From contig MHOO01000009.1 in assembly GCA_001820095.1 (NCBI GenBank), forward strand, positions 1-41,204: DNA of 41,204 bases, read 5' to 3'. Within the stretch, counting starts at the first letter, position 1, and each line of letters begins with the position of its first letter. The DNA is from Candidatus Staskawiczbacteria bacterium RIFCSPHIGHO2_01_FULL_39_25 (GTDB lineage Bacteria; Patescibacteriota; Minisyncoccia; Minisyncoccales; Staskawiczbacteraceae). The position numbers and the translations under genes are program-made. A model generated the notes under the pieces. The model saw nothing but the letters and a program-made list of their open reading frames with translations. It ran no database searches and was not told the origin of the DNA. Below are positions 382 to 1,138 of the stretch, in pieces.

Positions 382-469
382 GGCTCTCCTTAACTTTTTT
401 TCAAAGTTTCAGAGAGCCATAGTTTCAAAGTGCCAAAGTGTCCAACGCGGACAAAGGCACAAAGTTTCA
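382..469 (-). other. Hairpins and short repeats downstream of putative DGR variable region
   Basis: Nested hairpin GTGCC..GTCC/GGAC..GGCAC (430-460), GGCTCTC/GAGAGCC (382-418), and AGTTTCA three times. Confidence 0.5.
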
Positions 470-1138
470 ACAATCGCTGGAGAGGACCTGGTCGCCAGCG
501 CGCCACCCGCGCGGATGACCAACCGAGCGGGCATAGACACTCCAGTAGCGGTAGTAGGAGTGCCAGAGGGCGCCGACGGCCCAGAAGTTGCCATTCTTGT
601 CTTTAATGTACGCGATGTTCGCGTAACCGTTAACAAGCAGGTGGCCTTCTTGGCCCTTTGACTGCTTTTTGAGCAAGTCAAAGAAATGAGCCAGCGCGAT
701 TTCTTCACGCTCCTGGCCAAGCTCCTTGCGGATCGGGGCGTCCACTGACCGCTTTTCCAAGCGATGGATGGCAATGATGCCATCTTGGACATTTTCCTCA
801 ACCTTGCCGAGGAAAAACTGATTGAAGTTTTCGCCCGTCCAGCCGACGTTGGCTTCCTTGAGGGAATCCTTGTCAGCGACAAAGCGCTTGGCACCAGCAA
901 CTTTGATGCCGCTGGTTACCAATTTCAGGACAGGCGGCACTTCGTGCCGGTGCTGGGCGATGTGATTGGCGATGAGTTCGCTCAACCCTCCTGCCTCATT
1001 TACGCGTTGGGCCTCTTCTTTGGTAAGAAGGGCTTTGTCGTAGGCAGCGCCTGCAACTTCCAGGAACTTGCGTCCCTTGGAGTCGCGAACGGTCACGAAC
1101 GTGGCAGACGGGGTCAATGTCTTAGACATCGGCGTCAT
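467..1138 (-). CDS. Probable DGR target (variable) protein with C-terminal CLec-like variable region
   Basis: C-terminus WAVGALWHSYYRYWSVYARSVGHPRGWRAGDQVLS resembles CPR DGR targets. Codons between the conserved residues are NNC/NNT. Visibly more GC-rich than neighbouring genes. Confidence 0.7.
   Translation of the reverse strand: MTPMSKTLTPSATFVTVRDSKGRKFLEVAGAAYDKALLTKEEAQRVNEAGGLSELIANHIAQHRHEVPPVLKLVTSGIKVAGAKRFVADKDSLKEANVGWTGENFNQFFLGKVEENVQDGIIAIHRLEKRSVDAPIRKELGQEREEIALAHFFDLLKKQSKGQEGHLLVNGYANIAYIKDKNGNFWAVGALWHSYYRYWSVYARSVGHPRGWRAGDQVLSSDC

Follow-up and report, generated by a model that had tools for sequence, protein, structure and literature searches.

The locus considered here raises a simple question: how is a gene that looks like the target of a diversity-generating retroelement (DGR) served when no retroelement stands beside it? 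The gene lies at positions 467 to 1138 (reverse strand) of the window, that is, of the whole 41,204-nt stretch analysed, contig C9 (MHOO01000009.1) of the 743-kb, 12-contig genome of Candidatus Staskawiczbacteria bacterium RIFCSPHIGHO2_01_FULL_39_25. The window carries housekeeping genes and a pilin array, and the open reading frame (ORF) in question, of 223 amino acids counted from the first ATG, points at the start of the contig. A sequence-only reading had recognised a DGR variable region (VR) in its last codons and, finding no template repeat (TR), reverse transcriptase (RT) or Avd in the 41 kb, took the gene for an orphan: a remote target that is diversified in trans. The signature is confirmed and so is the absence from the window, the genome's only TR, avd and RT hits being on another contig, C8. 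The remoteness is not: we hold with high confidence that this is a chromosomal DGR target whose TR, antisense avd-like gene and RT on C8 most likely lie about 2 kb downstream, split from it by a tRNA-like gene and an assembly-breaking insertion sequence (IS).

When window positions 331-760 were compared permissively with the whole genome by BLASTN, the one strong match other than the query itself was C8:391-508, which holds just the adenine-specific template beside an RT gene that the sequence-only reading had suggested looking for. The TR (C8:391-501) aligns in register with window positions 586-476, which constitute the VR (476..586, reverse strand; 111 nt, codons 185-221, with a template adenine in 18 codons). 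The two differ at 20 of 111 positions, and 19 of these are TR adenines; changes thus affect 19/29 adenines against 1/82 other positions (Fisher p=3.1e-13). The adenine-site differences fall at codon position 1 in ten cases and at position 2 in nine. All 11 AAC/AAT codons of the TR give another residue in the target, and the ORF does end in the NNC/NNT codons from which this origin had been proposed. The single change outside adenines is within the published range, such changes being given for 23% of DGRs in PMC5758913. When the whole genome was scanned for identity at the 82 non-adenine positions, the TR scored 82, the VR 81 and the next best site 41. The TR could encode about 1.4e17 peptides over its 18 variable codons, with no stop codon reachable; no other targets or RTs were found in the genome. 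That the likeness of TR and VR arose by ordinary duplication or by chance deserves virtually no credence, given the bias towards adenines and its recurrence in five more TR/VR pairs from four relatives (G018, which has two targets, G007, G031 and G008), where 16/16, 17/17, 19/19, 21/22 and 21/22 mismatches are at adenines. The VR of a further relative, G014, has a 1-nt gap relative to its TR. The TR/VR pattern is that of a true DGR variable region, and the lack of an adenine-specific template, named by the sequence-only reading as a ground for refutation, does not apply.

At the 3' end of the VR, positions 476..490 (reverse strand), 15 nt are the same as in the TR, two adenines among them being unchanged, and the sequences diverge beyond; we infer, by analogy with the Bordetella model (described in PMC5758913), that this stretch may act as the initiation of mutagenic homology (IMH). 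Two hairpins follow the stop codon, as had been noted. The first (430..460, reverse strand) begins about 15 nt past the VR and is a candidate target-recognition hairpin or cruciform, a role that is likely by analogy with BPP-1 (PMC3240598). The second, with its T-run (382..418, reverse strand), is likely the terminator of the target mRNA and may also, or instead, be part of the recognition element. As DNA, window positions 325-480 fold with z=-7.1 against 200 shuffles, and the 106 nt behind the VR fold better than shuffles for 13/13 VRs (z -2.0 to -6.2). The sequence of the second hairpin and T-run is conserved behind all 13 aligned VRs, while that of the first varies among relatives, the stem usually being kept. 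Both hairpins are made from a 7-nt repeat, and the genome holds no second copy of the hairpin region. At the sequence level, therefore, there is an IMH/IMH* arrangement with a hairpin behind the VR but not behind the TR, as in DGRs.

The template cassette starts 390 bp into C8. Immediately 3' of the TR, and on the opposite strand to it, is an avd-like ORF (C8:504-866) that matches Avd models only (E 7.5e-14 and 8e-8), with scores below those models' cut-offs, and that is conserved at 59-90% in five relatives. It is followed on the TR strand by an uninterrupted RT gene (C8:887-1939, 350 amino acids) with a YADD motif, which scores 88.8 bits against Pfam RVT_1 (cut-off 29.6). The RT thus stands beside the TR, as in other DGRs. 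A promoter scan called none for the TR RNA at the expected place, its other calls being at near-chance level, and a TATAAT at C8:143-148 was spotted by eye. As a separate observation, all 6/6 cassettes have 7-11 consecutive G between the 5' end of avd and the beginning of the RT (L001:877-885 here, and five relatives); avd has no conserved AUG, and an in-frame stop directly precedes the G-run in this genome and in G008. The run is possibly a slippage switch or marks a non-AUG start.

What separates the target from this cassette can be read from the contig ends. Window positions 1..85 are one end of a three-copy ISNCY/IS1202-type IS, the body of which the assembly lacks, and positions 86..100 are a 15-bp target-site duplication found just once more in the genome, at C8:94-108 on the reverse strand. 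Six contig ends bear one of two repeats: C3, C9 and C11 each begin with type A, and type B is found at the C8 start, the C8 end and the C9 end; both types start with TGT and have internal repeats. When the nine A-B pairings were tested for a flanking duplication, exactly three were positive (C3 start/C8 end, 16 bp; C11 start/C9 end, 14 bp; C9 start/C8 start, 15 bp), and each duplicated word is present only at its own two contig ends. No transposase of this IS is found in the assembly, which is what a collapsed repeat would lead one to expect. A related element in G076 has its two ends 1.5 kb apart, flanking a 438-amino-acid ISNCY transposase (NF033594, 380 bits, cut-off 250). TGT/ACA ends, a long duplication and an ISNCY-type DDE transposase, the last known only from the G076 copy, place the element in the IS1202 family. 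Its closest known counterpart is probably the ISTde1 subgroup, with which (bioRxiv 10.1101/2022.12.17.520857; PMC10132070) it shares TGT...ACA ends, internal repeated binding sites, a length of about 1.5 kb and a transposase of about 440 amino acids; duplications there are 15-17 bp, against 14-16 bp here. Taken together, the three duplications give the contig order C11-IS-C9-IS-C8-IS-C3. Elsewhere in the assembly the C2 end overlaps the C4 start by 93 bp.

Because the 15-bp duplication is paired and the IS collapsed, the most likely order on the chromosome is target, hairpins, tRNA-like gene on the opposite strand, IS, TR, avd (again on the opposite strand) and RT. By summed coordinates the VR end and the TR start are 672 bp apart if the IS is left out and about 2.2 kb apart if it is counted. 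The locus is taken to be most likely contiguous since the duplication is unique to the two contig ends and the locus is likewise unbroken in five relatives: target-TR-(avd)-RT is contiguous in G018, G007, G031, G008 and G014, with VR-TR gaps of 392, 362, 350, 344 and about 560 bp, respectively. Weighing against this order, no contig among those listed in eight runs bridges the empty site, and none of them crosses the IS junction in full; with no spanning sequence, the C9-C8 join is one that we infer. In four runs the IS-end contigs are 2.3-3.4x deeper than the cassette contigs, which fits three copies, although depth is no copy number and was not counted as evidence.

The lack of a bridging contig would also suit a target far from its cassette and diversified in trans. 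The two do stand on separate contigs, and non-adjacent targets are documented for 45/372 DGRs (PMC5758913). A trans arrangement would need two of the three identical IS copies to have recombined and so moved the C8 start away; yet all three copies retain matching duplications on paired ends, and such recombination would separate the pairs (bioRxiv 10.1101/2022.12.17.520857). Since, in addition, the cassette is adjacent in five relatives, we regard a trans arrangement as improbable. In PMC5758913 a remote target has its RT >100 kb away; the alternative is another replicon. Here the inferred distance is 672 bp plus one IS.

The spacer between VR and TR holds a further gene, and the sequence-only reading had the target converging on it. 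This tRNA-like RNA (230..332, forward strand, opposite to the target) has an 8-bp acceptor, a 6-bp D stem with a 4-nt loop, a long variable arm and a 4-bp T stem, which we take to resemble 8/4 tRNA-Sec-like or allo-tRNA shapes, and a 15-bp terminator-like hairpin (329..361, forward strand) closes its gene. ARAGORN did not call it, and Rfam gave no near-gathering score on window 1-1500. The family occurs at unrelated loci in 22/79 family genomes, some with two copies; its members have a G discriminator, a mostly unencoded CCA and an anticodon loop that is usually though not always GAU. Among 16 copies (partial matches and secondary copies excluded), 14 of 27 predicted pairs show compensatory change. 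The convergent geometry stands. The module occupies the interval from VR to TR, with transcription running toward the target's 3' hairpins, so that a working part in the DGR (as a primer, as a regulator, or by controlling the target in antisense) might be imagined. Such a link, however, is very improbable: the five intact cassettes of relatives have no match to the module, and of 19 copies examined in relatives not one has a target or avd homologue inside about 1.5 kb, while one of the 19 lies near a distant RT, 31% identical to that on C8. Moreover, the relatives' copies have their own promoter-like element (a -10 box) and terminator-like element. The extra ~300 bp of this spacer is the tRNA-like module, and in G007, G018 and G031 the hairpin region joins the TR-upstream region almost directly. 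The tRNA-like RNA is thus a passenger that has entered the spacer between VR and TR, and its proximity to the DGR looks incidental.

With the target rejoined to its cassette, the locus is an ordinary B3 DGR, the kind that dominates bacteria of the candidate phyla radiation (CPR). TR-(avd)-RT is seen directly on C8, and adjacency of the target comes from duplication and synteny without spanning sequence. In Wu et al. (PMC5758913), B3 denotes TR-(avd)-RT and makes up 90% of the CPR set, with 'TG-TR-(AVD)-RT' entries in a table. The present locus shares the target-TR-(avd)-RT gene order, the avd orientation, a single C-terminal VR and an AAC-rich TR with B3 and with clade 2 of Roux et al. (PMC8144416); clade 2 targets typically have no membrane segment or known domain, as is the case here. 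It differs from CPR B3 DGRs in its VR-TR spacer, which contains an IS and the gene for a tRNA-like RNA. A search of one PMC5758913 supplement with four motif or name terms matched nothing that would place the VR in a UVR1-6 class. With the BPP-1 DGR (mtd-avd-TR-brt; PMC3240598) it has in common A-to-N change at codon positions 1-2, an IMH-like end and a hairpin soon after the VR; in contrast to BPP-1, it is chromosomal, its avd is antisense and placed after the TR, its target is a small 220-amino-acid protein and not a tail fibre, and its two hairpins are longer. On the Bordetella model, a TR-containing RNA would be reverse-transcribed by the RT with Avd, adenines would be miscopied in the process, and the cDNA would replace the VR starting from the IMH end, with the downstream hairpins assisting. 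Up to about 1.4e17 protein variants could be encoded in this way.

Past activity of this DGR is shown by the VR pattern; whether it still diversifies is a separate matter. The same contiguous anatomy could have been frozen by the IS and tRNA-like insertions or by loss of avd expression, which we consider a substantial possibility, though of less than even probability. The sequencing runs consist of contigs, with no RNA run listed. Among spanning contigs listed from X1, X5 and X6, the VR shows no differences; one of these runs may be the source sample. Records from 15 contigs give the identical target protein; the one other member of that cluster has two residue differences, of which one is at a TR-adenine codon and the other falls outside the VR, and these could be error. 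Decay is also seen in relatives. The target has matches in 17/61 genomes searched, this genome counted, and 16 loci from 15 relatives were compared, G009 being excluded. At 3/16 loci (G033, G041, G004) just a C-terminal RT remnant remains directly behind the target, and 8/16 have no TR or RT in the examined stretch, at least three of them since the contig ends. Whole-genome DNA searches of five genomes without an adjacent cassette, all drafts, found no separate TR in any. The true orphans of the target family look like leftovers of cassette loss and not like trans targets. In the three relatives with such an RT remnant (L018, L025 and L026), the TR, avd and most of the RT are deleted, with a frozen target left. 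Against freezing of the locus studied here, the TR retains all 11 AAC/AAT codons, the RT is uninterrupted, the 280 bp upstream of the TR show conservation in relatives, and neither that stretch nor either hairpin is interrupted by the IS; contigs, moreover, are blind to rare alleles. P0022 and P0088 are the same over 188 residues and differ at 15 residues, all in the VR, so the target family has diversified recently.

The target itself probably starts at position 1129 (Met4), a methionine kept in at least 90% of 71 sequences. Upstream is a perfect-consensus sigma-70-like promoter (1295..1323, reverse strand; 12/12). A long palindrome lies in the 5' leader (window 1174-1223), and similar sequence is found upstream of the target in 6/9 relatives' loci tested. 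The G+C content of the target (467-1138) is 56%, against 40% for the genome and 37% for RT and avd (at third codon positions 69% against 39%), which ranks it in the top 2-3 of 427 long ORFs.

In the predicted model of the protein, residues ~24-63 form three helices and residues ~70-223 a C-type-lectin-like domain bearing the VR, with a predicted local distance difference test score (pLDDT) of 90; a fold like that of C-type lectins (CLec), anticipated by the sequence-only reading, is likely. A single-sequence model of residues 70-223 reached pLDDT 36 and was discarded. The best structural match is to CLec-fold DGR variable proteins, TvpA of Treponema denticola among them (PDB 2y3c, 1yu0), with the VR on C-terminal strands and a loop. 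Foldseek gave no match at E<=0.001 in PDB or BFVD, the best hit of a profile search of PDB sequences had E 0.82, Pfam held no family at E<=0.01 (nor did 71 aligned members give anything beyond chance level), and NCBIfam gave a chance hit only. Matches in the ESM Atlas were to unnamed clusters, with neighbours mostly from Minisyncoccota. The family comprises 85 homologues, and its named relatives are from Staskawiczbacteria and other Parcubacteria, which together with the Atlas neighbours marks the genome as one of Patescibacteria (CPR). In the predicted domain, a divergent C-type lectin, the 18 variable residues would occupy two strands plus a loop and form a ligand-binding face. No signal peptide or membrane helix was seen in the 223 residues (maximum hydropathy 0.98), and because of this it probably acts in the cytoplasm or exits by an unrecognised route. 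Similarity of a set of ~290-300-amino-acid proteins (P0071-P0086) is limited to about one quarter of the target's length, and partial hits of that kind in G018 and G009 cover the N-terminal ~60 residues; five of these proteins tested had no Pfam family. Possibly they are targets with a different C-terminal domain.

The IS merits a comment of its own. A sigma-70-like promoter (101..128, forward strand; 11/12) has its -35 box abutting the target-site duplication, and all three IS duplications in this genome are directly followed by TTGACA. In relatives, where nine junctions out of 15 matches were examined, TTGAC was at the same offset in seven, TTGAT was there in one and TTGAC was at offset 8 in one. 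An ISNCY/IS1202-type element that inserts with one of its ends directly ahead of a -35 box is possibly new. The habit resembles that of Mutator-type TnGBS/p-MULT3 (PMC3942029), whose transposase family is unrelated, and was not seen for IS1202 in the literature covered. Among the titles listed in literature searches, none concerned the G-run in CPR DGRs, promoter-targeting IS1202 elements or the tRNA-like family. Elsewhere in the window are six tandem T4SS_pilin-family genes (27673-30010), a gyrA with an intein bearing a LAGLIDADG domain (30688-34587) and two class I tRNA synthetase genes (23720-25948 and 37099-39315; 742 and 738 amino acids), which are possible paralogues, as well as a third of 969 amino acids.

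Taken together, a DGR target that looks 'orphan' or 'remote' in a fragmented genome can be an artefact of assembly, and target-site duplications at contig ends can repair such a locus. Of greater novelty than the DGR target may be the two passengers of the spacer, a promoter-adjacent IS1202-type element and an 8/4 tRNA-like RNA. The target family is compact, models confidently and offers natural variant pairs, making it a convenient test case for small, signal-less CPR targets. A broader picture, which we put forward as speculative and rather unlikely to hold in full, is that the family would be a CLec subclass too divergent for Pfam, PDB profiles and Foldseek, acting as an intracellular antibody-like sensor (of phage or host proteins, for example) with a repertoire of up to 1e17. 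Its N-terminal three-helix part would then be a swappable module common to a second family of ~300 amino acids, and its cassette would have been repeatedly deleted in relatives, with frozen variants remaining.
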